Source: an uncultured bacterium
GTDB lineage: Bacteria > Bacillota_I > Bacilli_A > RFN20 > CAG-826
Direction: 5' to 3'
Length of the DNA: 64,000 bases
Assembly (NCBI GenBank): GCA_949293255.1
Contig: CASFCL010000003.1
Location: forward strand, 10,042 to 74,041
This document shows, one piece after another, positions 6,085 to 25,134 of the stretch; within the stretch, counting starts at the first letter, position 1, and the number at the start of each line of letters is the position of its first letter. The translations under genes were made by a program, and so were the position numbers. The notes beneath the pieces are model-generated. The model was not told the DNA's origin, did not search any database, and was given only the letters and a program-made list of their open reading frames with translations.

Positions 6085-7247
6085 CTCAACTATCAAGAAA
6101 CAGGAAATATAGAACTAAAAAGAAATTTAAATAAAGATTTTGTAAAGAAAGTTGTTGCTTTTTTAAATACTCATGATGGAACTATTTATATTGGCGTGGA
6201 TAATGATGGAGATATTATAGGCGTTGAAAATGTAGATATGTTAATGAGGCAAGTTTGTGACATTATTAGAGATCAAATCCTTCCTTCAACGGAAGCCTTG
6301 TGTGAAATTTCCTCTTTATTACAAGAAGATAAAACAATAATCTTGGTTAGAGTAAATAAAGGTAATAAGCTTTTTTATATAAAAAAGAAGGAAGAAGTGC
6401 AACAGGGTTTTTCATAGAGATGGAACATCGTCAGTCCCAATGAGTGAAGAAGAAATAGAAAGAAGATTTATATCCTCATTAACCTATAAAAGAACTCAAT
6501 TAAGTGAAATTTCTATTGCTAAAAATAATTTAGATTTCAGTATTTTAAAAGGAAAACTACACTCAAATAATATTCATATTAATGACGATACCTTTTTAAA
6601 CAATTTTTCTTTAATAACTAAAGATGAAAGATTCAACTTATTGGCAGAATTATTAGCAGATGAAAATAGGGTTTCATTAGCTATTTATGTATTTAAAGGT
6701 AAAGATAAAACAGATTATGTTATGAGAAATGAATATGGAAATAAATCACTAATACAGGCATATAAAGATGCTTTAAATTATTGTGAAGCTATAAATCCAA
6801 CATTTGTTGATGTCAACACAAGACCTCGCCAAGAAAAGAGAATGTTTGATAATAAAGCTTTTGAAGAAGCATGGATTAATGCATGTGTCCATAATTTATC
6901 GATACGCATATTTCACCGCAGATTTATATATCTGAGGATAGAATATAAATTGAGTCTCAAGGAGGGATACCATATGGATTAACTGAAAAAGATTTTTGTC
7001 TGGTATTTCTAAACCTGAAAATCCAGATTTAATGGATGTATTTAAGTCGTGTGGGATTACTGAGCACTCGGGTCACGGTGTTCCTGAAGTTGTAAAAGTA
7101 TATGGCGAAAAAGCATATAAATTTTCTACTAATACAATAACTGTAACCATACCATTTGATTTACAAAAATTTTATAAAAATGGCATAATGAATGGCATCA
7201 TAAATGATTATGTAAGTTCTTATTTTAAGGGTTATGAAATTAGTTAG
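6085..7247 (+). pseudogene. Fragmented AlbA_2/HATPase_c_4 (RecG C-terminal-like) ATP-binding regulator
   Basis: ETGNIELKR...VVAFLNTHDGTIYIGVDNDG, EAWINACVHN, GITEHSGHGV split across ORFs 6196-6417, 6440-6982 and 6996-7247; no start codon after the RBS. Confidence 0.8.
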
Positions 7248-7531
7248 ATTATTAAAATTGAGAAAGAGAAATTGGAGATTTAGAAGTGTTAGATTGTGGA
7301 TTTATTGGATTAATAAAACCATTTTGAATATATGTATTTACACAAAGTACAAATTGAATCTAAATAATTGACAACATTAAATTTAAAAGGCTTGATTGTA
7401 CTCTAATTTAATAATCTTAAAACCTAATAGATTAGATGAAGTTATAAATGATAACAATGAAGTCTAAAAAGATATTCTAACGACCATTGATGACTATAAT
7501 AGAAATTGCAAAACAAATATATTTAATTCTA

Positions 7532-7573
7532 TATCGGCAAAAAAAATATTAACATTATTTATTTTTGCCGATA
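7532..7573. promoter_or_regulatory. Inverted repeat, likely operator of the HTH-Fic gene
   Basis: tatcggcaaaaa...tttttgccgata directly upstream of the gene. Confidence 0.5.
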
Positions 7574-7590
7574 AATGATAATATATTTAT

Positions 7591-8484
7591 ATAAAATATT
7601 TATCATCAAAAGAAATAGCAAAATTATGGAATGTTTCAGAAAGATCGATTAGGAATTATTGTCTTAATAATCAAATTAATGATGCTTATAAAAAAGGGAG
7701 AAAATGGTATATTCCTATAGATGCAGTTAAACCATTAAGAATAAATAGTTCTTTAGAAAATAAGAATCCTTTATTAAAAAGATTATTAGAAGAAAAAAGG
7801 ATTAATTAAAAAGGTGGAATATATCATAAAACACAAATTCTTTTTGCTTATAATTCTAATCATATAGAAGGTAGTACATTAACAATTGAAGAAACACAAT
7901 ATATATTTGATGAAAATAAAATCATAAAAAGTGGAGCGATATATATTGATGATATTATTGAAACTGTTAATCATTTTAAATGTTTTGATTATATATTAGA
8001 TAATGCTAATAAAGATTTAACAGAATCATTTATTAAAAAACTTCATTCAATATTAAAAGAAAATACAAGTGATTCAAGATTAAGCTATTTTAAGGTAGGA
8101 GAATATAAAACTCTAGCTAATGAAGTTAATGGAATTGTTACTAGTGATCCAAAAGAAGTTAAAAAGGATATAACAAAATTTTTAAAAGAATATAAAGAAA
8201 AAGAAAATATAGGATTAAAAGATATTATTGATTTCCATTATAAATTTGAAAAGATTCATCCATTTCAAGATGGTAACGGTAGAGTAGGAAGACTCATCAT
8301 GTTTAAAGAATGTTTAAAAAATAATTTAACGCCATTTATTATTGATGATGAATTAAAGATTCCTTATTTAAGTGGAATAAAAAATTATAATGAAGAAAAA
8401 GAATTTTTAAGAGGAACCATAGAAGAAGCAGTAGATAAATATAAAAAGATTATTGATTATTTTGGGGTGAAAACAAATAATTAA
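7591..8484 (+). pseudogene. HTH-Fic family protein pseudogene
   Basis: KYLSSKEIAKLWNVSERSIRNYC (HTH), YNSNHIEGS, Fic motif HPFQDGNGRVGR; ATA at the expected start and in-frame TAA at 7807-7809. Confidence 0.85.
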
Positions 8485-8620
8485 AATCTTTGTTTGTTAG
8501 GTAAAACTTGTTTTATTGATTTAGGAATAATGTGAAATTATATTGAAAATGATTAATTAATAAATAAGTCAATTTATTATTAAATATATAGATAAAAATA
8601 TATAACGATAGTGGTGGTTT

Positions 8621-8646
8621 TTTAAGTATACATTTATGTACAAATC
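8621..8646 (+). promoter_or_regulatory. Putative recombination site 1 (hix-like 12-2-12)
   Basis: tttaaGTATACA-TT-TATGTACaaatc; homologous to 14259-14284 (-) and 15367-15392 (+). Confidence 0.55.
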
Positions 8647-8899
8647 TTGATTTTAAAAGGATATCCACTGCAAAAATGTATCAAAAAATAAAAATTCAAA
8701 ATATTGTTATTCTTGAAAATTTAGATGTATTTTTAGATTCTAATATTTGTTTTGAATGTTTAAATAATGTACTTCCATTGCTTCTTTCTTTAATATCTAT
8801 TTTTTGTGTTGGATATGCTGGATGGACATTATCAGGAACAGGAGTTTCTACTAGTGTTAATGCAAGTGTTGGGGATGTAATTGACACATCAAATTATAT
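8626..8899 (+). repeat. Left copy of long inverted repeat (partner 13978-14279)
   Basis: 8680-8770 is the exact reverse complement of 14150-14240 (91 bp); homology continues through the codons for SIFCVGYAGWTLSG..VSTSVNASVGDVIDTSNYI. Confidence 0.95.
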
Positions 8900-9422
8900 A
8901 TATTTTGATTCTACATACGGAAGCAATAACTCAGGTATTGATCCATTTTCATACGTTCAAGATAGTGCTGTAAATGGCTTTGTAGATGAAAACGGAATGG
9001 TCAATTCTAGTGCTGTGTTAAAATTTTATTTAATATTTGATTTTGGTAACTATTATTTTTATGATACATCTTTTAAAGACAATGGAGCTTTTAATTTTTA
9101 TTTATCATTGAGCTCAAATTCGTATTTGTCCTCAACATACTTAGATTCAGCCATTTTAAACTTAAATAATTCACAATATGCTAGTGGAAATTATGTAGGT
9201 TCTGCTCCTAGATTCAGTTTTAACGGCATAACAAATACAACTAATTTCTCTATTTTTAATTGCAATTTACAAGTAAGCAATATTCCTTCAAATTTTTCAC
9301 AATCTTATACCTTACGTTATAGATTAACATTTTCTCTTGTTTTTAATTTTAAATCTTCTATGGTTGAAGAAGTAATTTCAAATATTTCTAATTTTTCTCT
9401 TGCTTTGGGGGTTTATTTCTAA
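8676..9422 (+). CDS. Cassette 1 small exported subunit; native RBS/start deleted, possibly silent
   Basis: Paralog of 13503-14129 and 15411-16061 (VGYAGW...VGDVID). Confidence 0.65.
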   Translation: MYQKIKIQNIVILENLDVFLDSNICFECLNNVLPLLLSLISIFCVGYAGWTLSGTGVSTSVNASVGDVIDTSNYIYFDSTYGSNNSGIDPFSYVQDSAVNGFVDENGMVNSSAVLKFYLIFDFGNYYFYDTSFKDNGAFNFYLSLSSNSYLSSTYLDSAILNLNNSQYASGNYVGSAPRFSFNGITNTTNFSIFNCNLQVSNIPSNFSQSYTLRYRLTFSLVFNFKSSMVEEVISNISNFSLALGVYF

Positions 9423-11584
9423 TGAGAGTTAAAAAATACCGTTTAAGGAAATTGCTAGCTGTTGAATTATTTGCTTTTTCCTGCTCGCTTGCTTATAGCG
9501 ATTGGAGGATTCCTTCTAATAATTCTCAAATGCCTACACCATTAAAGCAAGATTCAGTTTGCTATGTTAAACGAAATGGTTCTATACTTGGTTATTTTGT
9601 ATCTCTTTCGGGAGCAATGAAATATTGCTATCAAAATAATGAGAATGATTCGATATATGTTATTCCGGGAGGAACAAATGCTTGTAATACAATTACGATA
9701 GAAAACGAAACTTTAAATATAGAAGCTGGAGACTCTTTAATTTTACCTCACACAGGTGAATATTGGGGAGATACTCAAAGCTCAAATGATCAAAATAATT
9801 CAAACGCATCAGTTTCTTTTGGAAATTCTACTTATAAGAAAATACAACTTAATTTAGTAAATACAACTATTAACGTTAACGGATTATTAGGTGTCGGTGG
9901 ATTATGGGGAGGACTAAGCTCAAAAAAACATGGTTTTACTGGCGGAAATTATTCTGAAATTATAATGGATAGCTCATCAAAATTAAATATATATGGAAAC
10001 ATGAGGGTTTATGGTTATATTGGAAAAAGTACAAATTTTACTTCTACAATCTCGATAAATGTTTATTCAGGCGGAAGTGTGTCAGAACCTCTAGTTGTTT
10101 ATGACTTTGAAGGTGGAACTAATACAGTAACAGGTTTAATGGGAAAAGCATTCTTTTTTAATTGCTATGACATGCCATCAATTGAAGTTCCGATGTTATT
10201 AAATTATGGATCAACTTTAGTTGGAAAAGCAGCAATATACATGAGTGATGCTCATAGGTATACTGATGGTACAATCTTTTCAACATCAAGCGCAGCTTTT
10301 TTAACCGCTAACTCTTCTGATGCGTCACTTTTATGGGACTATAATAGAAACTCAACTTCATATGCTCATACAAATTACTTAAATCATAAAACAACATTAA
10401 CAACATACGGAAATATTACATTTAATAAATTGGTGGTAAGTATCTTTTTCCTTATTAACTATACCGTGGATTCATCTGACTATTTTTTACCGGTGAGTTC
10501 AATGTACTCTTTTATAGTAAATGGAACTTTAAATATTAATAATAAAATACAATTTTTACCAGGAGCTTCTGTCAAGATTAATGAAACAGGTTTTGTATAT
10601 ATAAACGCAAATGTGGTTGCTCATGAAAACAACAATTTAACAATTGCAGAGCACAATGTTTCCTCTACTAGAGCAGAAATCATTAATAATGGAACGATTG
10701 TACTAAATTCTGGCTTTCAAGGATATATACAACCTGAAAACAGCGATTATACCTCTATGGTAGTAACTGGAGGAAATTATTCTTCAAGTGTTTCTACATG
10801 TAATGTTAAAACTGGGGGAAAGGAATATGAAGCGGTATCATTTTCTTCAATAATTAAAGAAGAAACATCAGACACTAACTTACAAACCAATTCTTATTAT
10901 ACTTCCAATGCTTCTTTAACAAATTCATTTTATCGTCTTTATGGAGGTCAAACAGCTTCTATAACATTCAATACTATTGAAGAAACAGGAGATTTTTATT
11001 ATTCTCCAGTATTTTATGTTGATGTGTCTTTTTCTTCATCTGAACTTACTTTTTCGTATGTAGTTACTTCTCCTACAACATTATACTTACCTATAGGTTC
11101 ATCTTATAGCATTTATAAAGATGATGATGATATCACTGTGAATAGAATTATTTTAGGCTCAACCCAACTCGACCTCCTTAATCCTACATCTCAAACTCTT
11201 TCAAATACAATAACAGCTGATGTATATCCAACATTTGAAAGAGAATCAACACCTATTAAAAGCATTACTTTGTATTCAAATGACGTACCATCTGGAAATT
11301 TAAGTTCTGATGGAGGCCAACTATTTTCAATTTTTATAACTACAGATCCTTCCGATTTAAGTAATTCAAAATATAATAATTTTAGTTGGACTGTATCAAA
11401 TGCTACAACTCCCGCAGTCGCAGATTTTACTAGCGAAGCAATACCTATTGTTGTTGAAAAGAATTCGACGCCGTTCATCAGCACCTCCAGGAATGTTAAA
11501 ATCAAATTATCTGTTTTCGACTTTAAGAGCGGAAACATCATTTCTTCCAATGAGTTTAGCAAACGTCAAGATGGGTGGCGGTAG
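9422..11584 (+). CDS. Cassette 1 large exported Ser/Thr/Asn-rich protein (putative adhesin)
   Basis: Signal-like N-terminus ending AYSDW; shared blocks VCY, IYVIP, YDFEGG, LNYGS. Confidence 0.7.
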   Translation: MRVKKYRLRKLLAVELFAFSCSLAYSDWRIPSNNSQMPTPLKQDSVCYVKRNGSILGYFVSLSGAMKYCYQNNENDSIYVIPGGTNACNTITIENETLNIEAGDSLILPHTGEYWGDTQSSNDQNNSNASVSFGNSTYKKIQLNLVNTTINVNGLLGVGGLWGGLSSKKHGFTGGNYSEIIMDSSSKLNIYGNMRVYGYIGKSTNFTSTISINVYSGGSVSEPLVVYDFEGGTNTVTGLMGKAFFFNCYDMPSIEVPMLLNYGSTLVGKAAIYMSDAHRYTDGTIFSTSSAAFLTANSSDASLLWDYNRNSTSYAHTNYLNHKTTLTTYGNITFNKLVVSIFFLINYTVDSSDYFLPVSSMYSFIVNGTLNINNKIQFLPGASVKINETGFVYINANVVAHENNNLTIAEHNVSSTRAEIINNGTIVLNSGFQGYIQPENSDYTSMVVTGGNYSSSVSTCNVKTGGKEYEAVSFSSIIKEETSDTNLQTNSYYTSNASLTNSFYRLYGGQTASITFNTIEETGDFYYSPVFYVDVSFSSSELTFSYVVTSPTTLYLPIGSSYSIYKDDDDITVNRIILGSTQLDLLNPTSQTLSNTITADVYPTFERESTPIKSITLYSNDVPSGNLSSDGGQLFSIFITTDPSDLSNSKYNNFSWTVSNATTPAVADFTSEAIPIVVEKNSTPFISTSRNVKIKLSVFDFKSGNIISSNEFSKRQDGWR

Positions 11585-11639
11585 TTTTACACTTGTGACA
11601 GGTTTTTAGATATAAATTTGAACATAATTTCAGCTTTAT

Positions 11640-11673
11640 AAATGCGATATTCATCGGAAAAATCGCATTTTTT
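11640..11673 (+). terminator. Terminator between convergent cassettes 1 and 2
   Basis: aaatgcgat/atcgcattt stem with T-tract. Confidence 0.6.
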
Positions 11674-11821
11674 CATTTTTGCAAATTTGGTCTCACATCA
11701 TTTGTTATTAAACAGATTGATTATCTTTGTATTGATGATAAAAGCTATATAAAAAGTGAATAAAAAGTATAAGTTTAATTATTACTATTAAATTAGTAAA
11801 TGTAATATTTTAAAAGAGTAA

Positions 11822-13513
11822 TTAATTTGTCCAATAGGCATTAGAATCAGCGTCTAGTACACTTGTATATGTAGAACTCCCATTAAAGTTAGTTAGATTT
11901 GTTGCACTGGAAATATAACCCTGGGCATTGTATGTGACATTATTAGGAGTAACATCTGGCAACGTTCCAAGAAAACCGGTCTTTAATTTAGATAATATAG
12001 GCATAGAAACGCTAGCTTTTGTAATAAAATTTATTATAGAATTTGCTTTCTCTGTTTTAATAAAACCACCTAAACCATGACTAGAATTATTTGATGAATA
12101 TATGATTCCATTATTTATTAAAACTCCATCTGACATATCTGAAGGATAATATGTATAGTTTGACCACGAATCAAAAATAGTTTCTCTTTGCTGAAAATAA
12201 GAAGGAAAATCACTGCTCTTAATTATACCAGTGTTCCAGTTAAAGTATACCTGTGCACCTTCATCAATATTAATTGAACTCCCAGGCATAATTTTCAGTT
12301 GGACATGAAAGTTATATGTTCCTTCGAATAGATTTAGTCTTAATCTATGAGATAGCGGAAACATTTTTCCACTGGTTGTTATATCATATGCTGCAACTGT
12401 TAATGAAATATCGTTAACAGTCACTCCCCCATAACAATTAACATTTGTATAAGAATTTATATAATGTTCAGCTGAGTAATTATTACTATGCACTGTATGT
12501 GCAAAATAAGAAGAATTAAATTTATAATCTATATAGCCTCCATCAAGAATTTTAATAATTCCAGCCGAAGCTGTTTTTGTTCCATCATTAGAAGCCTCAT
12601 AACCAATTAGGGTAACTTCAGTATTATACATTAAATCCCCGGTTGTAACATATACGCTGGAATAGGCATTTAATAAGGAGCCATAATTTAATATTACATT
12701 TGTATGAGAATTAGGAAAATCAAATAGGTTAATCGGGAAGAAAGTTGAATCTTTTAAAGCATTAGTGATTGTTCCACCGGCGTAATCATAAAAAACTATA
12801 GGTTGATATAGAATACAATTATCGTTAACAATTAGTTTAGAATTATTATTATCTGAAACTGGTTTAATATAACCCCTTAGATCCAAAGTAGGTGTACCTG
12901 TAACATTTCTTTCCAGTACTATAGAAGCTGATGTACCTAATTGGACTTCAGCATATGATGATGTAGTAGCACCAGCTAATCTACCCCCTCTATGGCCTAT
13001 AATCCCTCCGATATTCATTCTTCCATTAATTGTTAGCTTTTGGCCACTTTCAATTCTTAAAATTATTTTTCTATTTGTTGCAATTAAAGCATCAGTTTGG
13101 TCAGCAAAATTATAATTGGAAGGATACCCGGATGATGTATCTAAGGTTTGAGCATAAGTCTCTCCTTCATAAGGTAAAGTCAAAATGTCTGTACTTTCAA
13201 GTGTGTGTGACTCTTTCATAGTAACGAGAGTGTGAGTGTTACTAGAAGAGTCGTCATTATTAAGACTTGGGATTACATACAAAGTATCGTCAATTCCATT
13301 TCCGTAAATATTTTTTAAAGCAGAATCAATATTCGTATAATATGTCGTGCCTTTAGAATTTGTTGAATAACAAACAGCTATTCCAGAATCTGCAGTTGTC
13401 GTCTTAGTAGTAGATGAGAGAACCCAATCAGATACTCCAACAACACATAATAAAATTGGAATAATTAAAAGGAGGAATCTAAACGTTTTGGACGATACTA
13501 ATTTATTGAACAT
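11822..13513 (-). CDS. Cassette 2 large exported protein (putative adhesin)
   Basis: N-terminus ending GVSDW; VCY, LYVIP, YDYAGG, LNYGS shared with 9422-11584. Confidence 0.7.
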   Translation of the reverse strand: MFNKLVSSKTFRFLLLIIPILLCVVGVSDWVLSSTTKTTTADSGIAVCYSTNSKGTTYYTNIDSALKNIYGNGIDDTLYVIPSLNNDDSSSNTHTLVTMKESHTLESTDILTLPYEGETYAQTLDTSSGYPSNYNFADQTDALIATNRKIILRIESGQKLTINGRMNIGGIIGHRGGRLAGATTSSYAEVQLGTSASIVLERNVTGTPTLDLRGYIKPVSDNNNSKLIVNDNCILYQPIVFYDYAGGTITNALKDSTFFPINLFDFPNSHTNVILNYGSLLNAYSSVYVTTGDLMYNTEVTLIGYEASNDGTKTASAGIIKILDGGYIDYKFNSSYFAHTVHSNNYSAEHYINSYTNVNCYGGVTVNDISLTVAAYDITTSGKMFPLSHRLRLNLFEGTYNFHVQLKIMPGSSINIDEGAQVYFNWNTGIIKSSDFPSYFQQRETIFDSWSNYTYYPSDMSDGVLINNGIIYSSNNSSHGLGGFIKTEKANSIINFITKASVSMPILSKLKTGFLGTLPDVTPNNVTYNAQGYISSATNLTNFNGSSTYTSVLDADSNAYWTN

Positions 13514-14129
13514 TTATGTATGCTCCTATATTCAATGATATTCCATTTGTTACATTAATTGATGAATAAATAGATGTATAATCACTAACTTCAAATGTAA
13601 CTAAAATTCCAAAATAGATGGTTTCTATCGATCCGTTTGTATTTAAAATTGAGGCGATATTTAATGTACTGTTTGAAACTGATGGAGTTAAAAATAAGCT
13701 TGTATTACTAGCTCCAAGAATTCCATAGGAAGCTTGAGTTGCAGCAATTTTTGAATTTGTTATTAAATCATAAGACCCTGAATTTTTAATTTCTACTTTA
13801 AAAACAAGTTGATTATTTGTTATAAGTTTAGCGTTATTACATGTATTAAGATTGATTTGATAATGAATTGTTAAAGAAGCCGTATTACCAATTATTCCTT
13901 CGTTAGCAAAACCCTTATCTGTATATACAATATTTGAAATGCCTGAATTGTTGTCCCCTCTAACTGAATTATAAGAAATATAATTCGAAGTATCGATTAC
14001 ATCTCCAACACTCGCATTAACACTAGTAGAAACTCTTGTTCCAGAAAGTGTCCATCCAGCATATCCAACACAAAAAATAGATGTTAAAGAAAGAAACAAT
14101 GGAAGTAGTAATTTAGCTTTCTTAACCAT
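13503..14129 (-). CDS. Cassette 2 small exported subunit, intact RBS and start
   Basis: GGGAG-aaaaca-ATG; MVKKAKLLLPLFLSLTSIFCVGYAGW. Confidence 0.75.
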   Translation of the reverse strand: MVKKAKLLLPLFLSLTSIFCVGYAGWTLSGTRVSTSVNASVGDVIDTSNYISYNSVRGDNNSGISNIVYTDKGFANEGIIGNTASLTIHYQINLNTCNNAKLITNNQLVFKVEIKNSGSYDLITNSKIAATQASYGILGASNTSLFLTPSVSNSTLNIASILNTNGSIETIYFGILVTFEVSDYTSIYSSINVTNGISLNIGAYINVQ

Positions 14130-14279
14130 TGTTTTCTCCCGATAAATTGACATTATTTAAACATTCAAAACAAATATTAGAATCTAAAAATACATCTAAA
14201 TTTTCAAGAATAACAATATTTTGAATTTTTATTTTTTGATTATCCTTTTTAAAATCAAGATTAGTACATAAATGTATAC
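13978..14279 (-). repeat. Right copy of long inverted repeat
   Basis: Reverse complement of 8626-8899, plus 43 bp (14107-14149) carrying the RBS and start codon. Confidence 0.95.
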
Positions 14280-14284
14280 ATTTA
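14259..14284 (-). promoter_or_regulatory. Putative recombination site 2
   Basis: Minus strand taaatGTATACA-TT-TATGTACtaatc; overlaps the perfect 22-bp palindrome 14266-14287. Confidence 0.55.
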
Positions 14285-14294
14285 TGTCGTATTA

Positions 14295-14323
14295 ATAATA
14301 CCACCATTAATATTTTTTGTAAA
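14295..14323 (-). promoter_or_regulatory. Sigma70/SigA-type promoter facing cassette 2
   Basis: TTTACA-17bp-TATTAT with extended TG. Confidence 0.6.
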
Positions 14324-14359
14324 TACCAAATAAAATAGTCAATTTATTCAAGAAAACAA

Positions 14360-14959
14360 TTATTTTTTTGTTTCAATTGATCTTAAAAAATTATAGAAAG
14401 CAGTTCTTGATATACCTAGTCTAGTAGTAGCTTCTTTAACAGTAATTTCTTTATTTTTATATAGCGATGCAACTTCATAATATTCATCAGTAATCACTAA
14501 AGATGGTCTACCAAATTTAACACCTTTTTCTTTAGCGATCTTAATTCCTTCAGCTTGTCTTTGTCTAATGGTATCTCTTTCATTTTCAGCAATAAAAGAT
14601 AGAAGTTGGAGAACAAGATCTGAGACAAATCTTCCCCATAAATTCGAAGGTTTATCTCTTGTATCTAGTATTGGCATATCTATTACAAATATATCAGCTT
14701 TGATATCTTGAGTGATTACTTTCCGTTGTTCTCCAATTTCTCTATAGTTTCTTCCTAACCTATCAATTGATTTGATAACTAGAAGATCTTTTTCTTTTAA
14801 TTTTCTTATTAATCTACGATACGATTTTCTATTAAAATCTTTCCCTGATTGTTTATCGATAAATATGTTTTTATCTTCAATTCCAAGTTTATACATTTCT
14901 TCAACTTGTCTGTCGGTTTTTTGAGTAACTGACGATACTCTTACATATCCATAATTCAT
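14360..14959 (-). CDS. Serine recombinase (resolvase/invertase family) with C-terminal HTH
   Basis: YGYVRVSS..Q..RQ, DKQSGK..NR, SIDRLGR, ER..I.QRQAEGI..AK..GVKFGRP; AAGGAG RBS fits ATG at 14959. Confidence 0.93.
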   Translation of the reverse strand: MNYGYVRVSSVTQKTDRQVEEMYKLGIEDKNIFIDKQSGKDFNRKSYRRLIRKLKEKDLLVIKSIDRLGRNYREIGEQRKVITQDIKADIFVIDMPILDTRDKPSNLWGRFVSDLVLQLLSFIAENERDTIRQRQAEGIKIAKEKGVKFGRPSLVITDEYYEVASLYKNKEITVKEATTRLGISRTAFYNFLRSIETKK

Positions 14960-15366
14960 ATAAAACATTCTCCTTATGAATATATTTTAAAGTAGCAGTT
15001 ATTTATCGTGATTTTATTAGGATGGTTGCGTTTAAAGTAATAAATTTAAATAACTTAAAAGCTTATTTATAAAAAACATATGTTTTCCTACATATTTTAA
15101 TGTTACGCTAAACTTTTGTGTGACAATTGCTATTAATTCTTAGTTTTTACAATGAATTTTAACCATGCATATTTGTGATAAGAATAGTTATGATTTTAGG
15201 CCTCTAGGTCCTGACTTCATAATGACTGTCAGTAGGGAAATCGCCGATTTAATAAATCGTTTTTTATATCAAAAATTTTAAAAGTTAATTAGATATAAAA
15301 TGTTAATATTTAAGTCAATTTATTATTTTTAAATTGAATTAAATCTATAGTATTTTACCATGTTTA

Positions 15367-15392
15367 TTTTTGTATACATTTATATACGAAAG
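15367..15392 (+). promoter_or_regulatory. Putative recombination site 3
   Basis: tttttGTATACA-TT-TATATACgaaag; 9 of 12 arm positions palindromic. Confidence 0.55.
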
Positions 15393-15410
15393 TTAATTAT
15401 TTTCTTACAT

Positions 15411-16061
15411 ATGAATCTAAAACCCATTAAAAATTCACTAAAAATAGTAAATAAAAAAAGCAGCGGAATCTTACTTTTGCTCTCAATTTTTAGCCTTTTT
15501 AGTGTAGGATTTTCATCATGGATTTTAGTCAACGAAAATGAAAATTCAATGTCAGTTAATGTTGATGGAACAGTAGGTGATGTTATTGATCTTACAGGAT
15601 TAGTAACATTAGATACTTCTAATGTAACAATCACTGATTATGGTTATTCAGGGTTTATAAAAAATGGAATATATTCAACATTAGGATATGTTGCTTTACC
15701 AGTTACTATTAATCCAAAAGAAGGTGAAAATTATACACTTTATCCTTCTTTATCTTATACTTGGGATGAAATAACGGAATCAACAGCAGTTGCTTTTAGG
15801 GAGAATTTTTACAGATGTTCATTTGATACAACTTTAGATTATGGAACATCAGTTTTATATGGTACTTTTTCATCAAGTTTAAGTACAAAATATTCTGCAG
15901 CATATTCTTTTGATTATTCATCTAATAGTTCATCATTAGGAACAAATTTTTATATTATTTTTGAACTTGGTCCATTTAGTGAGTCTTTATATGAAAGATT
16001 ATCAGATTCTTCTTTAAGGTTTTCTTTTTCGTTAAATATAGGAGTTGATACAAATGCTTAG
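15411..16061 (+). CDS. Cassette 3 small exported subunit
   Basis: LLSIFSLFSVGFSSWIL...TVGDVIDL; start uncertain. Confidence 0.7.
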   Translation: MNLKPIKNSLKIVNKKSSGILLLLSIFSLFSVGFSSWILVNENENSMSVNVDGTVGDVIDLTGLVTLDTSNVTITDYGYSGFIKNGIYSTLGYVALPVTINPKEGENYTLYPSLSYTWDEITESTAVAFRENFYRCSFDTTLDYGTSVLYGTFSSSLSTKYSAAYSFDYSSNSSSLGTNFYIIFELGPFSESLYERLSDSSLRFSFSLNIGVDTNA

Positions 16062-19000
16062 TATGAAAAATAAAAAGAGAGTTTATAGAAGATCGATATT
16101 TTATTATCTATTTTTCTTTATGCTCTTTTTTGTTACACCTATTGCAATATGTTCATGGATATTATCTGATGTAGTTATTTATGAAAATATTAAGGCTGAT
16201 TTTAAACCTAGTGGTTTAACTGATTATATTAATGGTCTTAGTAGTGGAACAAGTAATTACATTTACGATAATAGTGTGAATTATAATGATGATAATTATC
16301 GAAATGAAAATGCTTCATATTTAGCAACGGCTCAGAGTGCATCTGATACATACGTTTCGAATTATGTTTTAGCTGCTGAAGATGAATCGTCCTATAGAGG
16401 CTACGATATAGATAGCGACTTTACATATATTGGTGGTAAAACAAAAACGATTGAATTAGGAAATCCATTTTCTACAACAACAATTAATAAAAATGTTCAT
16501 TTTACTCATACAAATAGTGAAATTAATTATTCATGGAGCAGTATAAGTTCTTTTTCTGTAAACGATAACGCAGAAGATGAAGCTGGAACATCTAGTAATT
16601 TAAGTTCTAATAGTTTTTTCCAATATAGAGTCTACAATAGTTCTCAATCACGTATGGAGTATCGATACTCTAATAGATTTAATAAAAACGTAAATTTTTA
16701 TTGGGGAATTAATGCAAATTATGATGGAACATCCCATACAAAGCACGGTACAGTAACTGCTATCCATTACTATGGCGACCAAGGTGCCTCTAGGATTACT
16801 GTAACTTCCGCTGTACCTTATGGAAGACTTTATACAGTTAAACTTGTCGGAGATTTACTAATTACTGATAATTCAACCTTATCAATTGGTGCATTAATTG
16901 GAGCAATTTCAACTACATTTTCAGGTGGCGTCATTAATGGGGATTTTGTGTGTTTAGATTTGAATGGCCATACAATTACTATTGACAGTGGTTCAACTTT
17001 AAATGCTTGGGGATATGTAATTGATTCTTCATTAGATGAAAATGGTAATCATTTAGGGCAAATTGTTAATAATGGAACAATTTATACAAGTTTTGTTGTT
17101 GAAGATTATGGTGGAGGTGGTAATACTGTTGGTAGAGGATTCACTAATACAATGCCTTTTTCACTATATTCCTTACCTTATTTAGCTTGCAAAGTAAAGA
17201 CGAATTATGGTGGTAGCATTATTTGTGGAACAATGCTTTATGCTAGTGATACACAAAATAGAACCTTATTAAATTGGATAGGGAATACAAGTAGTTATTT
17301 TATTCAAATGACTACATCTGGAGATTACATTACTATTGATACATATAATAATTGTTCATCGAACATGAACACACATGTTAAAGGATCATCAACACTGCAA
17401 CCATTCCATTCTAATTATTATCTAAACGGTACAATCAATATTAATAGTTTAACGCTTAATTTAAGTGTTTCTGTTATTAGTGCTACTATCAATATGTCTC
17501 AATATCCATTTCAAATTCCTCCATATGCTCGAATTACAATTTCTTCATCTAGCACTATAACTTTACCTATTCATCTAGAGTTGAATCCTGGTTCAACTCT
17601 AGTAGCTTATGAAGGAAGCAAGATAAACTTTACTTCTGTTACTTATCAGACTTCCGCAACTGCCCTGGGAAGTACTAAAGTAATTGCTAGTGGGACATCT
17701 TATGGTGGAATAAGTGTGCCAACTCAGATGCCACCTACTGGGAATACTTCTTTTGCAATTACTGGTGCATCAGGTCAAAGTAACGGCTTATATGGATATA
17801 CATCATCCTATTATACAGATTATGAATCAGCTGAAAAAAATTTGATATTACAAAATAATCCAAGAGTTAAAATTAATAGCACTTTAAACTTTAGCGGTAA
17901 CGGTCATATATTAAGTGGATTAATGTCTTTAGGTGCAGAAACTCTAAATTCAATTACGAATGCAGTAAATCAAGGAAAATTAACTACTTTTTATAGAAAT
18001 GCACAAACATTCGAGAATTTTGGAACAAATACTAGCGATGCTATTTCTTTTGTTAACACAGGTGCTAATCCCGGAAATATTTCTTATGGAGGTTATACTA
18101 TTCAGCCTCTTGCAACTTCAAGCAGTCAAGTTTCTATTAATTATACTGACGCTACAATTGATGATAGCGGAAATAGCGATAGTGAAGCTTTAGTTTTATA
18201 TAAAGTTGTTTCTCCAAGTTCATTTAATGCTAACTTTGATGCTAATACTTATTATGATTTTAGAAATGGTTTTTATTATAATTCAAAAACAAGTAAATAT
18301 TATATTTATAAATTAGTTAGCGGAAGCGGAACGCCTGTAACATCAATAGGAAGGATTCAAACACTTGGTAATTTTGTTGAAGTAGAATCAATAAATAAAG
18401 ACCATAGTGTAACATATAATAGTGCCAAATATTTGTTTTTCGAGGATACTTTTGTTTCCACAAATATATCAAGTCCTTCTACTTCTGGTAATGGTTTATA
18501 TCTTTATGATAATTCAACAAAAGCTTATAATTTGATTAGTAACTTATCAGCAAATTACACATTTGAGGCTAGTGTTCGTAGAAGAAGATATAGAGGTGCA
18601 ACTTCTGTTACAAGTAGTTCAGCTAATACTACTTATGCTGCAAGTGGAACTGCCAGTAAATCCTATATTGCTTGGATTCCAGGAAGTATTACTTATCCTA
18701 CTTCATGGACGAATTTACCTAATTTTGAAGAAGATGCTTATGATGATGTTAGATATACAGGAGAACAAGTTGATCAGGGCACTGTGCCAACAAAAGGTAT
18801 AGTTTATGTTTCTAATGTATCACTTAATTCTTTTACTGTTTCAAATGTAAATACTTCTAGTCAAAGAGTAGATTTAACAGTTATTTCTCAAAGTGCGACA
18901 TATAGTTCTACCTATAATTTAATAGGTACATGCGATATCAGTTATAGCAATGAATCCGGATATACATATTCATATTCCGATCCTTGGCAGACTGATAGCG

Positions 19001-19215
19001 CTTCAAGTGGTTTTCCTGATAGTAGTTGGAAAGCTCCAACAATTGGTACAGGAACAGTTAGTAGAACTCGGTATTTAGATCACTATTATTTTTATAGATA
19101 TTCATATTTTGTTTCAGGCAATTATAACGAGACTGGTGCTAATTTGTATACAAATGTATTAAGTTCTGGGAGCAATATTAAATACACCTCTTCAACAGGC
19201 TTATGGACAAAATAA
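16054..19215 (+). CDS. Cassette 3 large exported protein (putative adhesin)
   Basis: GGAG RBS; N-terminus ending AICSW; LSIGALIG, LNAWGYV, VEDYGGG, TNYGG match paralog blocks. Confidence 0.7.
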   Translation: MLSMKNKKRVYRRSIFYYLFFFMLFFVTPIAICSWILSDVVIYENIKADFKPSGLTDYINGLSSGTSNYIYDNSVNYNDDNYRNENASYLATAQSASDTYVSNYVLAAEDESSYRGYDIDSDFTYIGGKTKTIELGNPFSTTTINKNVHFTHTNSEINYSWSSISSFSVNDNAEDEAGTSSNLSSNSFFQYRVYNSSQSRMEYRYSNRFNKNVNFYWGINANYDGTSHTKHGTVTAIHYYGDQGASRITVTSAVPYGRLYTVKLVGDLLITDNSTLSIGALIGAISTTFSGGVINGDFVCLDLNGHTITIDSGSTLNAWGYVIDSSLDENGNHLGQIVNNGTIYTSFVVEDYGGGGNTVGRGFTNTMPFSLYSLPYLACKVKTNYGGSIICGTMLYASDTQNRTLLNWIGNTSSYFIQMTTSGDYITIDTYNNCSSNMNTHVKGSSTLQPFHSNYYLNGTININSLTLNLSVSVISATINMSQYPFQIPPYARITISSSSTITLPIHLELNPGSTLVAYEGSKINFTSVTYQTSATALGSTKVIASGTSYGGISVPTQMPPTGNTSFAITGASGQSNGLYGYTSSYYTDYESAEKNLILQNNPRVKINSTLNFSGNGHILSGLMSLGAETLNSITNAVNQGKLTTFYRNAQTFENFGTNTSDAISFVNTGANPGNISYGGYTIQPLATSSSQVSINYTDATIDDSGNSDSEALVLYKVVSPSSFNANFDANTYYDFRNGFYYNSKTSKYYIYKLVSGSGTPVTSIGRIQTLGNFVEVESINKDHSVTYNSAKYLFFEDTFVSTNISSPSTSGNGLYLYDNSTKAYNLISNLSANYTFEASVRRRRYRGATSVTSSSANTTYAASGTASKSYIAWIPGSITYPTSWTNLPNFEEDAYDDVRYTGEQVDQGTVPTKGIVYVSNVSLNSFTVSNVNTSSQRVDLTVISQSATYSSTYNLIGTCDISYSNESGYTYSYSDPWQTDSASSGFPDSSWKAPTIGTGTVSRTRYLDHYYFYRYSYFVSGNYNETGANLYTNVLSSGSNIKYTSSTGLWTK

Positions 19216-19227
19216 GGGTGACCTATT

Positions 19228-19878
19228 ATGACTATTGAAAATAATTCAAAGATATTAAATAGAACAATTTCATACTTTAATAAATTTGAAAATAATGTCT
19301 TTAAATACGAGTTAGTTATTCGAGAAAATAATTGTCTCAATAATTCTTATAATAAATCTATAATCAAAGTATATCCTGAAAAGATATCAAAAACTAAAGC
19401 ACTTTTGTATAAGAATAAAAACATATCTAGAAGTAAAAACTCTTCTATAATTCCTCTTCGACAAAGGGATAAGGTTTATTTATTTAATTTAGTTATTGAT
19501 GTCACTAAACTTAAAGAAGAATTATCTTTAGGTAAAATTGTTCTTTCAACAGCTTTATCACTCTTTATTGAAGCGTTAGCTGGAATAGGAACAACAGTGA
19601 TGGTTTCTTATTTATCCAATGCGGTGCTTAAATCAGTATCTTCATTAAAGCATAGTTATGCACTAGTGCTTTATTGGATTCATCTAAATGAACCTGTAAC
19701 AAAAACAGTTGCATGTAGAAAAATCTTAAATGATAAAAATATTAACTTTAAAGATAAAACCAAATCGACTATTGACAAAATCATTGATGATTTATTAGCA
19801 AAAACTTTAATATGTAAAATAGAAAATAAGTATATTTCTAATGTTCGAGTATTTAAGATATGTAGTAGACTATTATAA
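19228..19878 (+). CDS. Hypothetical protein
   Basis: 216-aa ORF with RBS-like AAGGG; no recognised motif. Confidence 0.5.
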   Translation: MTIENNSKILNRTISYFNKFENNVFKYELVIRENNCLNNSYNKSIIKVYPEKISKTKALLYKNKNISRSKNSSIIPLRQRDKVYLFNLVIDVTKLKEELSLGKIVLSTALSLFIEALAGIGTTVMVSYLSNAVLKSVSSLKHSYALVLYWIHLNEPVTKTVACRKILNDKNINFKDKTKSTIDKIIDDLLAKTLICKIENKYISNVRVFKICSRLL

Positions 19879-20001
19879 ATAAAATTTTATTAAAGTATCG
19901 ATTAAAAAAATTATTAAGAATAAATAGTTTATACATTATCAAATATCATTTTCCCTGCAAAACTCAACTTTTTTTATAAATTTTTATTTTTTTCATTTTC
20001 T

Positions 20002-20045
20002 TTGGTAAATTTTTCTCTTTGCTGACATCTTGTTAGTAAGGAGGT
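20002..20045 (+). promoter_or_regulatory. Bipartite motif copy 2 plus RBS
   Basis: ttGGTAAatttttctctttgctgaCATCTTGTTAGTAAGGAGGT. Confidence 0.55.
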
Positions 20046-20315
20046 AATAATGATGACTTAACAAATTTTAAATGATGACCTAGAGCAAGAGATTTTATTG
20101 ATGCGATTATTAATAAATAAAGAAGAAATTTACATATTTAAAAATAGCCTATTTTAAAATAGGTAAATCATTAAACTTTAAAAAGATGAAAAAATTTTCA
20201 GTTAGGAGGAAGATCTTAGGCTTAATAAAATTGAGTAATTTGATTCATTATGCAACGTATTTGCAACGAAAATAAATGCGTTGCATAATCAAAGAATTTA
20301 TTTTATTATCAAAAC

Positions 20316-21578
20316 ATGAGGAGTATAAAGTTGAAAGAAACAAAAACATTAAAATTTAAAGTAGATTTATCTAACTCATTTTTAAAAACTGTCAGTGCCT
20401 TTGCAAATTTTGGTACTGGAGTGGTTAAATTTGGAGTTGATAATGATGGTTTTATTATTGGAATTGATGATTTAGAGAAGAAATGTTTAGATATTGCAAA
20501 TAAGATTAATGATAGTATATCTCCTAACCCTAATTATAAACTTGAAATAGATTATAAAAATAAAACTATAGATTTAATTGTTTATGAAGGATTAAATAAA
20601 CCATATTTTTATAAATCAAAAGCTTATAAAAGGAATGATTCATCAACAATAGAGGTAGATATAATTGAACTTCAAAGACTTATTTTAGAAGGTAGAAATA
20701 TGTTTTATGAAGAAGTAGAAACTATTGAAGAAGATTTAAGTTTTGAGATATTAAAAGATAAACTAAAAAAAGAAATAGGTGTTGATCTATCTAAAGATAT
20801 ATTAAAAACTTTAGGACTTATAAATGACAATAATAAATATAATAATGGTGCAAAAATCTTATCAGATTCAAATTGTCTTTTAGGAATCGAGATTATTAAA
20901 TTTGGTAACAATATTAATGAAATAAAAGAAAGAATCGCTATAAGTAATTGTTCAATTTTAAAACAATATGATTTAACTTATGAAATTTTTAAAAAGAATT
21001 ACAGTTATGAATTAATTGATGGACAAGCAAGAAAAACTATTAACTTAATCCCTTTAAATGCCTTTAGAGAAGCTTTAGCTAACGCTATAATTCATAGGGT
21101 ATATGATGAAAATATTAATATTAGAATAATGATGTTTTTAGATAAGGTAATTATAACTTCGCCTGGTGGATTACCTAGTGGAATAAGTAAAGAAGAATAT
21201 TTAGATGGCAAAATTTCTAAATTAAGAAACCCAATGATTGCTAATATATTTTATAGATTTAAATATATTGAAAAATTTGGTACTGGAATATTAAGAATCA
21301 AAGATTTATATAAAGAGTTAAATGTTAAACCAGATTTTAAAGTTTATGAAAATAGTATTAGCGTAATTCTTCCTTCTATAAATATGAAATTATCTTTAAC
21401 AGAAGATGAAAAGAAAATAATGGATCATTTAAATGAAGGATATAGAGCTTCAAGTAAAGATTTATCTAATGTAACAGGGTTTAATAAAGATAAAGTTTTA
21501 AGAACTATAAAAGGATTAAAAGAAAAAGATTATATAAAAATTAGTGGTGTAGGTAAGGCAACTAAATATTATGTTTAG
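20316..21578 (+). CDS. AlbA_2/HATPase_c_4 ATP-binding protein with C-terminal wHTH
   Basis: KTVSAFANFGTG..FGVDNDG, FREALANAIIHR, SPGGLP, RNPMIA, IEKFGTGI. Confidence 0.85.
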   Translation: MRSIKLKETKTLKFKVDLSNSFLKTVSAFANFGTGVVKFGVDNDGFIIGIDDLEKKCLDIANKINDSISPNPNYKLEIDYKNKTIDLIVYEGLNKPYFYKSKAYKRNDSSTIEVDIIELQRLILEGRNMFYEEVETIEEDLSFEILKDKLKKEIGVDLSKDILKTLGLINDNNKYNNGAKILSDSNCLLGIEIIKFGNNINEIKERIAISNCSILKQYDLTYEIFKKNYSYELIDGQARKTINLIPLNAFREALANAIIHRVYDENINIRIMMFLDKVIITSPGGLPSGISKEEYLDGKISKLRNPMIANIFYRFKYIEKFGTGILRIKDLYKELNVKPDFKVYENSISVILPSINMKLSLTEDEKKIMDHLNEGYRASSKDLSNVTGFNKDKVLRTIKGLKEKDYIKISGVGKATKYYV

Positions 21579-24900: not shown

Positions 24901-25134
24901 TTATATGGTCATCATATCTGTTTATCTCAAAAAGCATATGAAAAAAGATATGTTTCCTTATATAAAAAGATGATTAAGAGAATGAAAGATAACAATTTAA
25001 ATGGAATTATTTATACTGAATTATCTGATTGTGAAACTGAAGCAAACGGAATTTATACTCTTGATAGAGAAGTTTTAAAGATTGATAAAGAAATTATTAA
25101 AGCTATTAATAAAGAGATTGATGATATTTATTAA
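21970..25134 (+). CDS. MFS sugar transporter fused to a GH2 glycoside hydrolase
   Basis: Multi-TM N-half with GSLTDRVNKRK; C-half HPRPQLER, FEGVDQ, LDQGY, RKHIKVE, FNEAWG, TEIGG. Confidence 0.85.
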   Translation: MEAAIKKESSKVGVRKWFIFILVGLIGQFAWAIENMYINTYITYLNFTDVSGVGFNYSMLIAITTALSAIVATLTTIFMGSLTDRVNKRKIFISIGYIVWGISTASFGLLNVGGGSANNLIPISITAFQAAIMVIVIDCIMTFFGSTSNDAAFNSYVTKNTNSLNRGKVEGVLAVLPLIAMLIIFVGLNGLTTEAMGYRWDLFFYIVGALVLFVGLISTILIPKEDTIKVEDLSYTRLLFDGFKPKTVKENKLLYLVLVGYFIYGVAIQVYFPYLMVYVQYTCNIANSGEGFLTPFAIVMAIALLGGSLLSVIIGIFSDKFSKEKMMIPVVTILIIGCLMMFFAPFIKDDTIRIVYSSISGLIMILGYVSVPTIFNAMVKDNIPKGKEGSFMGVRMIFVVALPMCIGPFIGDALNASLGSTYLSDFGVESNIPSEYGYIVAIFILLLTFIPIFFILKMNKDKGIKKAYKNKGYLYSDLKKEYTKEELDFDLSKHPRPQLERADFMSINGEWDIEISKNPDIDEINFSSKGMVPFAVESPISQVNHLLESDEFIYYKKVVSLTKSLQKEHIFLNFEGVDQECWVYINKKLATYHVGAYTRFKVDIKEFIEDENYENIEITIKVKDVTDDSYHMVGKQRLHPSGWFYSSSSGIYKPVYIESIDGDYIESVLYTSLYDEESVLVNVKTNVDGEVKLFINEKEYLIEANKETKIKLDPFIAWDINNPYLYDVKIVFNKDEVKSYFGVRKIEIKGDENKGIYLNNRRIILNGLLDQGYYYLGGLTPRSYDEYLNDIKNAKELGYNCLRKHIKVENDYYYYYADKLGVLLIQDIPNGGDRIKFLNVVFPRFSIKLFNKEKFNTYESYGRTNDEGRELFKKDLLEIINNTSSFPSVIIYTLFNEAWGQFDGSKIYEYVKPLVKNQLIDTASGWLDCVKSDFYSIHSYTFPAFKRKDDKGYNRPYVLTEIGGASLKVKGHYDYPKLYGHHICLSQKAYEKRYVSLYKKMIKRMKDNNLNGIIYTELSDCETEANGIYTLDREVLKIDKEIIKAINKEIDDIY

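Follow-up and report, generated by a model that had tools for sequence, protein, structure and literature searches.

The window analysed here, the whole 64,000-nucleotide (nt) stretch G000:C3:10042-74041 of an uncultured bacterium, carries at 8559-19215 a locus in which three paralogous pairs of a small and a large gene, ordered +, -, +, are arranged around a single serine recombinase gene. With modest confidence, this locus is regarded as a three-state site-specific inversion switch in which the one small serine recombinase selects the expressed gene pair, or cassette. The central element is the segment S (14277-15374; 1098 bp), which comprises a promoter-like site, two copies of a 20-mer and the recombinase gene, and whose presence in both orientations in one metagenomic run is well supported, though indirectly, by contig ends and simulation; the third arm and the expression logic of the switch are plausible from the sequence. 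The assembly to which the window belongs (1.25 Mb, 29% G+C, 94% complete) comes from a lineage that we take to be RF39-like. Its MnmG shares 83% identity with that of a MAG (metagenome-assembled genome) labelled 'uncultured Bacilli', and other relatives bear labels such as uncultured Mollicutes and Candidatus Onthovivens. RF39-like bacteria are uncultured, genome-reduced and common in human and animal gut communities, and to our knowledge their cell surface is almost uncharacterised.

The evidence for the inversion of S derives from Logan contigs (k=31) of four runs of one study, here called X1-X4. X1, which contained 98% of the sampled words at a flat depth of about 40x, is the probable source run of the metagenome-assembled genome (MAG). 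In this run one contig corresponds exactly to 14268-15383 (1116 nt), the next begins at 15371, and the contig carrying the leader of cassette 2 begins 1 nt ahead of GTATAC. Unitigs simulated at k=31 from the reference only gave one unbroken sequence (14211-21000), whereas those simulated from the reference together with a flipped S gave 14268-15383 (1116 nt) and 15371 onwards, which are the ends observed in X1. The exact inverted repeat shared by sites 2 and 3, the crossover sites bounding S, is 13 nt, far below the k of 31, and therefore one orientation alone cannot break the graph. The inversion between these two sites, which had been proposed in the first-pass annotation, is supported, though indirectly, by contig ends that the simulation reproduces exactly when both orientations are included and only then. 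S also forms a separate contig (14264-15387) in X4, which contains a strain about 95% alike.

The crossover sites are marked by a 16-mer, GTATACATTTATRTAC, located at 8626 (+), 14264 (-) and 15372 (+), that is, before each cassette and in the orientation of the cassette; an extra overlapping match with 2 mismatches at site 2 is due to its palindrome. The chance expectation of this word is 0.17 in the 64-kb window, four matches were reached in 0 of 100 shuffles, and elsewhere in the genome a single copy was found, with 1 mismatch, within a gene-like stretch on contig C16. In a 12-2-12 frame, site 1 spans 8616-8641 (+; centre AT at 8628-8629; score 17, on the scale described below) and has a conserved cassette-side arm, ACATTTATGTAC; site 2 spans 14264-14289 (-; centre AT at 14276-14277; score 18) and holds a 22-bp perfect palindrome; site 3 spans 15362-15387 (+; centre AT at 15374-15375; score 19) and has the best dyad of the three (8/12). 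All of them are centred on the AT of GTATAC, and site 2 is inverted relative to sites 1 and 3. The core is the symmetric AT in the window and GT/AC or AA/TT in relatives. The shared 26-bp site that had been noticed before each cassette keeps its conserved core, while its frame (8621, 14259 and 15367) is shifted, as the dyad frame lies 5 bp over; likewise, the crossover centres, formerly placed at 8633/8634, 14271/14272 and 15379/15380, were corrected to 8628/9, 14276/7 and 15374/5 on the basis of the homologous sites of relatives.

Recombinase homologues with 52-60% identity were gathered at 92 loci, comprising 11 loci of relatives, 1 same-genus contig and 80 metagenome contigs, and near-palindromic sites of the form GTnTATAAAAGT-NN-ACTTTTATAnAC adjoin the recombinase gene at these loci. 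Every GT-NN-AC 26-mer of the 92 loci and of the window was scored against the half-site derived from the relatives with a threshold of at least 15, and 62 sites reaching this score lie within 600 bp of recombinase genes (155 kb) versus 15 in the other 937 kb. At 17 loci, several of which are near-identical copies of each other, two sites lie 116-138 bp apart beside the gene, and their centres are complementary (GT/AC or AA/TT) in 17/17, a requirement for inverted crossover sites of serine recombinases; many of the segments enclosed by paired sites contain a promoter-like site. Between two related genomes of one genus (L031 and L032), the 108-nt interior matches at 77/108 positions when one copy is inverted and at 62/108 without inversion, where 200 shuffles gave a mean of 62.1 and at most 68; the flank aligns directly. 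The genes behind such invertons encode, among others, a DNA methyltransferase, SPFH/zinc-ribbon proteins and DUF1919 (L046, L056, L067, L116 and others). The paired complementary sites and the inverted interior indicate that the recombinase family consists of promoter invertases; the 116-138-bp invertons with homologous recombinases apparently represent a broad, undescribed family in gut Firmicutes-like bacteria. A gene of the large-protein family is present at only 1 of the 92 homologue loci (L036), and a metagenome scan with the recombinase gave best matches only 59% identical and no same-species locus.

The recombinase itself (14360-14968, minus strand; 202 aa) consists of an N-terminal catalytic domain (Pfam Resolvase, E 2.7e-25, residues 6-150) and a C-terminal helix-turn-helix (HTH_7, residues 153-192, E 7e-4; 20.1 bits, under the Pfam cut-off of 23.8), and its gene is single-copy in the 1.25-Mb assembly. 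Its assignment as a small serine recombinase holds, since the catalytic motifs are present and the family adjoins invertible promoter segments; in particular, the YGYVRVSS and SIDRLGRNY motifs align with Sin. The best solved relative is in fact Sin (2r0q; 97 bits, E 1.1e-26), followed by gamma-delta resolvase with 68 bits, whereas the DNA-invertase chains 4m6f and 3uj3, which we take to be Gin, give 48 bits. A match to phrog_125 (E 2.8e-45) carries the term 'DNA invertase' as an annotation label only, and with 50.2 bits against a cut-off of 272 the protein is not a member of the master invertase Mpi model (NCBIfam NF009949). Of the likeness to Hin and Gin drawn on in the first-pass annotation, the inverted 12-2-12 sites are present, with a symmetric core in the window; by sequence the closest kinship is not with Hin/Gin/Cin/Pin, Sin scoring 97 versus 48 bits.

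A sigma-70-like promoter (14323-14295, minus strand) of the form TTTACA-17-(TG)TATTAT, with 10/12 consensus match and a TG extension, is located in S, beside the 3' end of the recombinase gene; stopping 5 bp short of site 2, it is directed out of S into cassette 2. In a second species of the same genus, G001, an outward TTTATA-17-TATAAT was seen by eye at the same relative place, overlapping the outer arm of the site. The sequence at 14323-14295 is considered a putative functional outward promoter of S. The gap of 393 nt between the recombinase gene and site 3, and the leaders, gave no Rfam match, and the RNA fold z-score obtained in this check for RNA elements was -0.49.

Beside the crossover sites, a 20-mer, AATAAATAAGTCAATTTATT, occurs in 3 copies in the window (at most 3 mismatches), a number reached in 0 of 100 shuffles. 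The copies, all read on the plus strand, are located at 8559-8578 (AATAAAT-N6-ATTTATT), where the locus begins, 60 bp from the centre of site 1; at 14329-14348, within S, 62 bp from the centre of site 2; and at 15305-15324, also within S, 60 bp from the centre of site 3. Each sits on the side of its crossover site that faces away from the cassette, so that site and 20-mer form modules of 83, 85 and 83 bp, and its outer arms (ATAAAT...ATTTAT) are the same as those of the crossover sites with a different central hexamer. According to PMC2428073, the res site of Sin is 86 bp long and is composed of the crossover site I, a spacer bound by HU and the accessory site II, the latter a direct repeat. 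Owing to the site-like arms, the 60-62-bp spacing and the kinship with Sin, the 20-mers are read as candidate accessory recombinase sites. An HU-family gene is present at G000:C3:57812-58081 (E 3.4e-29) and says little here, as HU genes occur in most bacteria. A role of the 20-mer as promoter was considered and set aside: the minus strand has TTGACT, yet by eye no usable -10 follows in 3/3 copies, and none of them is among the promoter-like matches found in the window.

The three cassettes proposed in the first-pass annotation, with the serine recombinase between cassettes 2 and 3, were confirmed by their open reading frames (ORFs) and by paralogy scores. Cassette 1 is composed of small1 (8676-9422, +; 248 aa as read in the window) and large1 (9422-11584, +; 720 aa), whose start overlaps the small1 stop; cassette 2 of small2 (13503-14153, -), with a likely start at ATG 14129 (MVKKAKLL) after GGGAG and a database copy of 208 aa on the same contig, and large2 (11822-13513, -; 563 aa); cassette 3 of small3 (15411-16061, +; alternative start 15360) and large3 (16045-19215, +; 1056 aa), which belongs to the large family only distantly. 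In every pair the two genes overlap by a few bases. The start of small3 at ATG 15411 lies outside S and gives a normal signal-peptide start, while ATG 15360 lies in S and would be lost upon inversion. Identity is 44% between small1 and small2 (E 4e-22), 29% over 122 aa between small3 and small2 (E 3e-6) and 31% between large1 and large2 (E 1.7e-26); large3 matches the large-family profile with an hhalign probability of 99% (E 9e-18).

Cassettes 1 and 2 also share a constant 5' region, which in cassette 1 (8626-8911, +) includes the leader, the signal peptide and the first mature residues and is an inverted repeat of 13966-14279, with stretches of 33 nt at 97%, 91 nt at 100% and 142 nt at 89% and with indels of 16 nt and 43 nt. 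Compared with each other, the cassette-1 leader is without the 43 nt and the cassette-2 leader without the 16 nt (8659-8674, 8770/8771, 14108-14149). In the X1 contigs both leaders apparently hold both stretches, two 119-nt versions having the 43 nt and a cassette-2-type leader the 16 nt. The first 31 residues of small1 in the window come from the 43-nt deletion, and P0008, a database protein, corresponds to small1 but begins normally, with MVKKTK (216/217 residues identical); this start, together with the X1 leaders, indicates that the 31-residue N-terminus is a variant or an assembly effect, and the window leaders may represent a variant or a local mis-assembly within the inverted repeat. 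In addition, 8 metagenome clusters related to small1 and small2, 3 of them on one 206-kb contig, have a constant 45-residue N-terminus and unrelated bodies, which is, at the level of sequence, the usual appearance of cassette variation.

A comparable arrangement was found in G001, where the recombinase is 60% identical and three exact copies of the species' own site are each located directly before a small and large cassette. Contig C28 opens with 127 nt of the recombinase 3' flank, and C61 and C10 both open with these 127 nt in reverse complement (100%). The start of C28 coincides with the middle of the site that follows the recombinase gene, and C61 and C10 diverge 1 nt past the central AT into two different cassettes, which places the crossover at or before the AT and not 5 bp further; the site on the 5' side of the recombinase is joined without break to a third cassette. 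This branching is a hint of the pattern expected from a cassette swap at the promoter-side site. Among the 15 cassette loci examined, a recombinase homologue stands beside the cassette in 1 (L036, of G001) and a scoring site in 2 (L036 and L200), with another recognised by eye (L163), all in G001; 12 cassette loci from 11 other genomes have neither a recombinase homologue nor a scoring site beside the small gene.

In the proposed mechanism, the flip of S would turn the promoter from cassette 2, the state of the window, to cassette 3. Site 1, being inverted relative to site 2, would permit a second inversion, of 5.6 kb, that would put cassette 1 beside the promoter in place of cassette 2, and the two inversions together would generate three expression states; the mutually exclusive expression put forward in the first-pass annotation is a presumed outcome. 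The 20-mers would probably be occupied by another dimer of the recombinase and, helped by an HU-type protein, would select the pairs of sites able to react, and each cassette would supply a small and a large exported protein of a variable surface structure. A more specific version of this scheme, which we advance only tentatively and which may well prove wrong, is that a Sin/beta-type recombinase with res-like sites and a symmetric AT core was domesticated in wall-less RF39-like bacteria as a three-way selector of two-gene surface-fibre cassettes from a large, SipW-peptidase-linked protein family, the accessory geometry, and not the core, allowing only inversions.

Several observations weigh against the three-state switch. 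X1 may be the sample from which the MAG itself derives, and X2-X4 belong to the same study. Neither alternative junction sequences nor joints of opposite strands at the sites occur among the X1 contigs listed, the predicted junction unitigs being only 47 nt long, and the MAG itself contains no contig with an alternative junction. As to site 1, an X1 contig (7500-8700) is unbroken across it: simulation of the site-1 inversion predicts a break at 8641 and this contig continues to 8700, so that at a depth of about 40x no site-1 recombinants were found. Site 1 also has a poor outer arm (5/12 dyad positions), and the AT core is self-complementary, which means that the core alone does not prevent deletion between the direct sites 1 and 3. 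Promoter-like matches occur at chance density (72 found versus 81.2 expected in DNA of 29% G+C), and weaker ones lie upstream of site 1 (8516-8544) and in S facing cassette 3 (15146-15173); the function and uniqueness of the promoter are consequently presumed, and of the 'clear' SigA-type promoter described in the recombinase segment the sequence is there, whereas its position is what distinguishes it. The 20-mers lie all on the plus strand, so that the copy at site 2 is turned the other way with respect to its crossover site, and in relatives no convincing accessory-like element was seen by eye about 60 bp from the sites. The nearest solved relative of the recombinase is a resolvase and not an invertase, and in comparison with the Logan contigs and P0008 the window leaders show the indels of 16 nt and 43 nt. 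Finally, the comparison with related loci did yield a flank joined to two cassettes in G001, and the G001 bin (2.0 Mb, 170 contigs, 4% contamination) may combine two strains, which could produce this pattern as well; the recombinase frame of G001 (L036, C28 58-645) moreover has one in-frame TGA, so that the gene could be a pseudogene, the switch could be frozen or the codon could be a sequencing error.

Part of these observations would suit a two-state switch of the Hin kind. In this case only cassettes 2 and 3 would alternate through the flipping of S, site 1 would be a remnant that came with the duplicated 5' end of cassette 1, and cassette 1 would be either unexpressed or driven by a promoter of its own, a possibility that we rate as rather unlikely and nevertheless as one to be taken seriously. 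The X1 contig running through site 1, considered with the simulation, and the degenerate outer arm of this site (score 17; 5/12 dyad) agree with it, and the resemblance between sites 1 and 2 belongs to a repeat of 286 bp for which duplication alone would account; however, the 20-mer is retained at its distance of 60 bp from site 1, beyond the duplicated stretch, and in G001 the 3' flank of the recombinase is joined to two cassettes with the 5' side fixed, for which a simple flip of S is insufficient. Less probable is that general homologous recombination over the 286-bp inverted 5' regions of cassettes 1 and 2 swaps these two cassettes and the recombinase flips S only. General homologous recombination is the route by which the sap genes of Campylobacter fetus are exchanged, and the inverted stretches of 91 nt at 100% and 142 nt at 89% would offer it a substrate; the 8 database clusters with the same 45-residue N-terminus and unrelated bodies would fit too, as would one X1 contig that joins the cassette-1-type upstream of the 91-nt repeat to the cassette-2-type downstream, although this chimera can be an assembler path through the repeat and an exchange internal to the leader keeps the leader starts with their own flanks and alters only the bodies.

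That nothing rearranges in living cells, and that the contig breaks and the G001 branching reflect strain mixtures or assembly artefacts, is improbable. X1 does have other contigs 90-99% alike in the region, X3 and X4 carry other cassette sets and G001 looks like a mixed bin; against this, the positions of three contig ends, and with them the 1116-nt length, agree exactly with the boundaries of the 13-nt inverted repeat predicted for the flip, the boundaries of S recur in the X4 strain and the depth is flat at about 40, and a strain difference starting exactly at the centre of a site would nonetheless imply a past site-specific exchange. Still more improbable is a Sin-type resolvase that carries out deletion or resolution between the direct modules 1 and 3 (a loss of 6.7 kb that would take along the first two cassettes and the recombinase gene), or the remains of a mobile element. 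The closeness to Sin (97 versus 48 bits), the Sin-like length of the composite sites and the symmetric AT core speak for such an enzyme, but the contig ends fit the inversion of S, the short invertons of relatives have complementary asymmetric centres, no joint from 8628 to 15375 is found among the X1 joints listed, and the locus is surrounded by chromosomal housekeeping genes with no adjoining transposase or plasmid genes.

As regards the strains of X2-X4, they have other cassette sets, and the locus is hypervariable between conserved flanks. Joints such as that from 8652 to 19877 (sides below 30 nt) and an X3 contig end at 8645 were recorded; no support is drawn from these arrangements, nor from the parts of the stretch left uncovered in X2-X4. 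In X3 and X4 contigs the site-like 27-mer (8626-8652) is joined straight to 19877 onwards (region 19877-19959), and 19948-19959 is joined to the intergenic 11714-11755, on the opposite strand in one contig.

The core of the large proteins defines a family with 3497 cluster representatives at E <=0.001 (1050 at <=1e-30), present in 25 of the 61 genomes searched, the present one included, and in 16 of 36 genomes of the genus. It has no match in Pfam, PDB or PHROG, and no source consulted gives it a name. PDB matches of the family fall only on the Hint-type C-terminal domains of some members; in fact, P0002, P0003 and others end in Hint/intein-like domains that start with C-x-x-E-G-T and are lacking in the three copies of the window, which hints that the members so ending may be autoprocessing or toxin-delivery variants.

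All six cassette proteins have at the N-terminus a basic stretch, a hydrophobic stretch and then a motif like G-F-S-S-W-I-L. By regular expression the motif is found in 8 of 1259 ORFs, all on contig C3, namely the six cassette proteins and two small-family paralogues encoded upstream of the window at G000:C3:3161-4770 (L204, 3161-6363). Directly after both paralogues, a 509-aa ORF (G000:C3:4834-6363) matches the archaeal/SipW-type signal peptidase model TIGR02228 with 48.9-50.5 bits, below the cut-off of 51.85. This arrangement and the shared motif suggest that a SipW-like signal peptidase, whose gene lies about 13 kb upstream, may process the cassette proteins, which are regarded as putative exported proteins of variable surface structures. 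The SipW-cognate signal model TIGR04088 gave 0 matches at E <=10 in the genome, and Peptidase_M73 (PF12389) was not found in the locus. A second peptidase domain of this type is located on contig C14 (L206, L208) beside a 246-aa ORF with a near-motif, a ninth protein. Homology of the small proteins to TasA/camelysin is not supported past the N-terminus, since the profile match to Peptidase_M73-like proteins of relatives covers only 33 N-terminal columns with 45% probability. A phage tail-fibre nature of the Gin/Min kind was discarded, since the six cassette proteins and the 216-aa ORF downstream of large3 (orf216) match no PHROG and the neighbourhood is chromosomal. No penicillin-binding protein transpeptidase was found in the 94%-complete assembly, and the host bacterium is probably wall-less.

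Other features were observed around the locus. Upstream, 6094-7247 contains decayed pieces of an AlbA_2/HATPase_c_4 gene, paralogous to an intact gene at 20316-21578, and is followed by about 1 kb (7250-8300) without ORFs of at least 50 aa, yet about 95% conserved in the X2-X4 strains, with no match to the cassette profiles or the recombinase. Directly 3' of large3 lies orf216 (19228-19878), which has no family match and is conserved in the X4 strain although the body of cassette 3 differs there. Further downstream, 21970-25134 is a single ORF of 1054 aa with an MFS transporter domain (residues 38-408) and glycosyl hydrolase family 2 domains (500-1034), an unusual fusion, if real.

The principle of inversion is already known, and what is new here is the set-up and the target proteins. 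In the Hin system, which governs flagellar phase variation in Salmonella, the H-segment of about 1 kb lies between inverted 26-bp 12-2-12 sites and holds the gene of the serine recombinase together with a promoter directed outwards; the present locus resembles it in that recombinase and promoter share a flipping segment that would connect or disconnect the promoter. Unlike in Hin, the promoter would alternate between two, perhaps three, cassettes and not between on and off, the core is a symmetric AT, there is a third site and an accessory-like site 60 bp away in place of a Fis enhancer (no search aimed at an enhancer or at Fis was made), and among the chains of the PDB the enzyme resembles Sin more than the DNA invertases. 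Among enzymes of the Sin/beta group, beta recombinase inverts as well as resolves. The likeness to this group lies in the best solved match (2r0q); the candidate composite modules of 83-85 bp also come close to the 86 bp of Sin res (PMC2428073), and an HU gene is present, as in most bacteria. In contrast to Sin and beta, which belong to Gram-positive plasmids, the locus is chromosomal with modules inverted around cassettes, and its accessory element is a quasi-palindrome with inverted arms, unlike the direct repeat given for Sin site II in PMC2428073.

The Gin/Cin/Min, p15B and R64 shufflon systems are similar in that several sites and one recombinase give alternative arrangements of surface or adhesion genes. 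Gin/Cin/Min and R64 swap the 3' segments of tail-fibre or pilus-tip genes, and R64 uses a tyrosine recombinase. Here, unlike in the phage and shufflon systems, whole two-gene cassettes would be placed behind a promoter, and no PHROG match was obtained; the serine-type recombinase and the location of the sites upstream of whole cassettes place the locus outside the R64-type shufflons. In gut Bacteroides, promoters are inverted by Mpi, a serine 'master invertase', and the surface architecture of these commensals changes as a result (PMC10403206, PMC4747536). Mpi acts in trans on many short invertons, whereas here the recombinase rides on the inverting segment and would serve the adjacent cassettes. 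In the vsa/vsp/mpl systems of Mycoplasma and in the sap system of Campylobacter fetus, inversion is due to tyrosine recombinases or RecA. These have in common with the present locus one movable or shared expression site and silent paralogous surface genes with conserved 5' ends in bacteria that have small genomes or no wall, and differ from it in the enzyme, here a serine recombinase, and in the cassettes, here two translationally coupled genes of another protein family. In the literature collection searched, no account of phase variation in the RF39-like lineage was found.

Loci of this kind break and scramble metagenome assemblies, as in G001 and in the leaders of the window, and assemblies should therefore be read with care. 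If the switch is real, it would provide a natural Sin-like recombinase that inverts with composite sites and a symmetric core, which bears on the choice of direction by these enzymes and on their use as genetic tools; in its form of a three-way selector, it would represent a novel means by which a serine invertase is given its direction and the first antigenic-variation system described for the lineage. It would also give a first functional handle on a large unannotated protein family, and it would mean that RF39-like bacteria vary their surface structure by programmed inversion as mycoplasmas do, with another class of enzyme.

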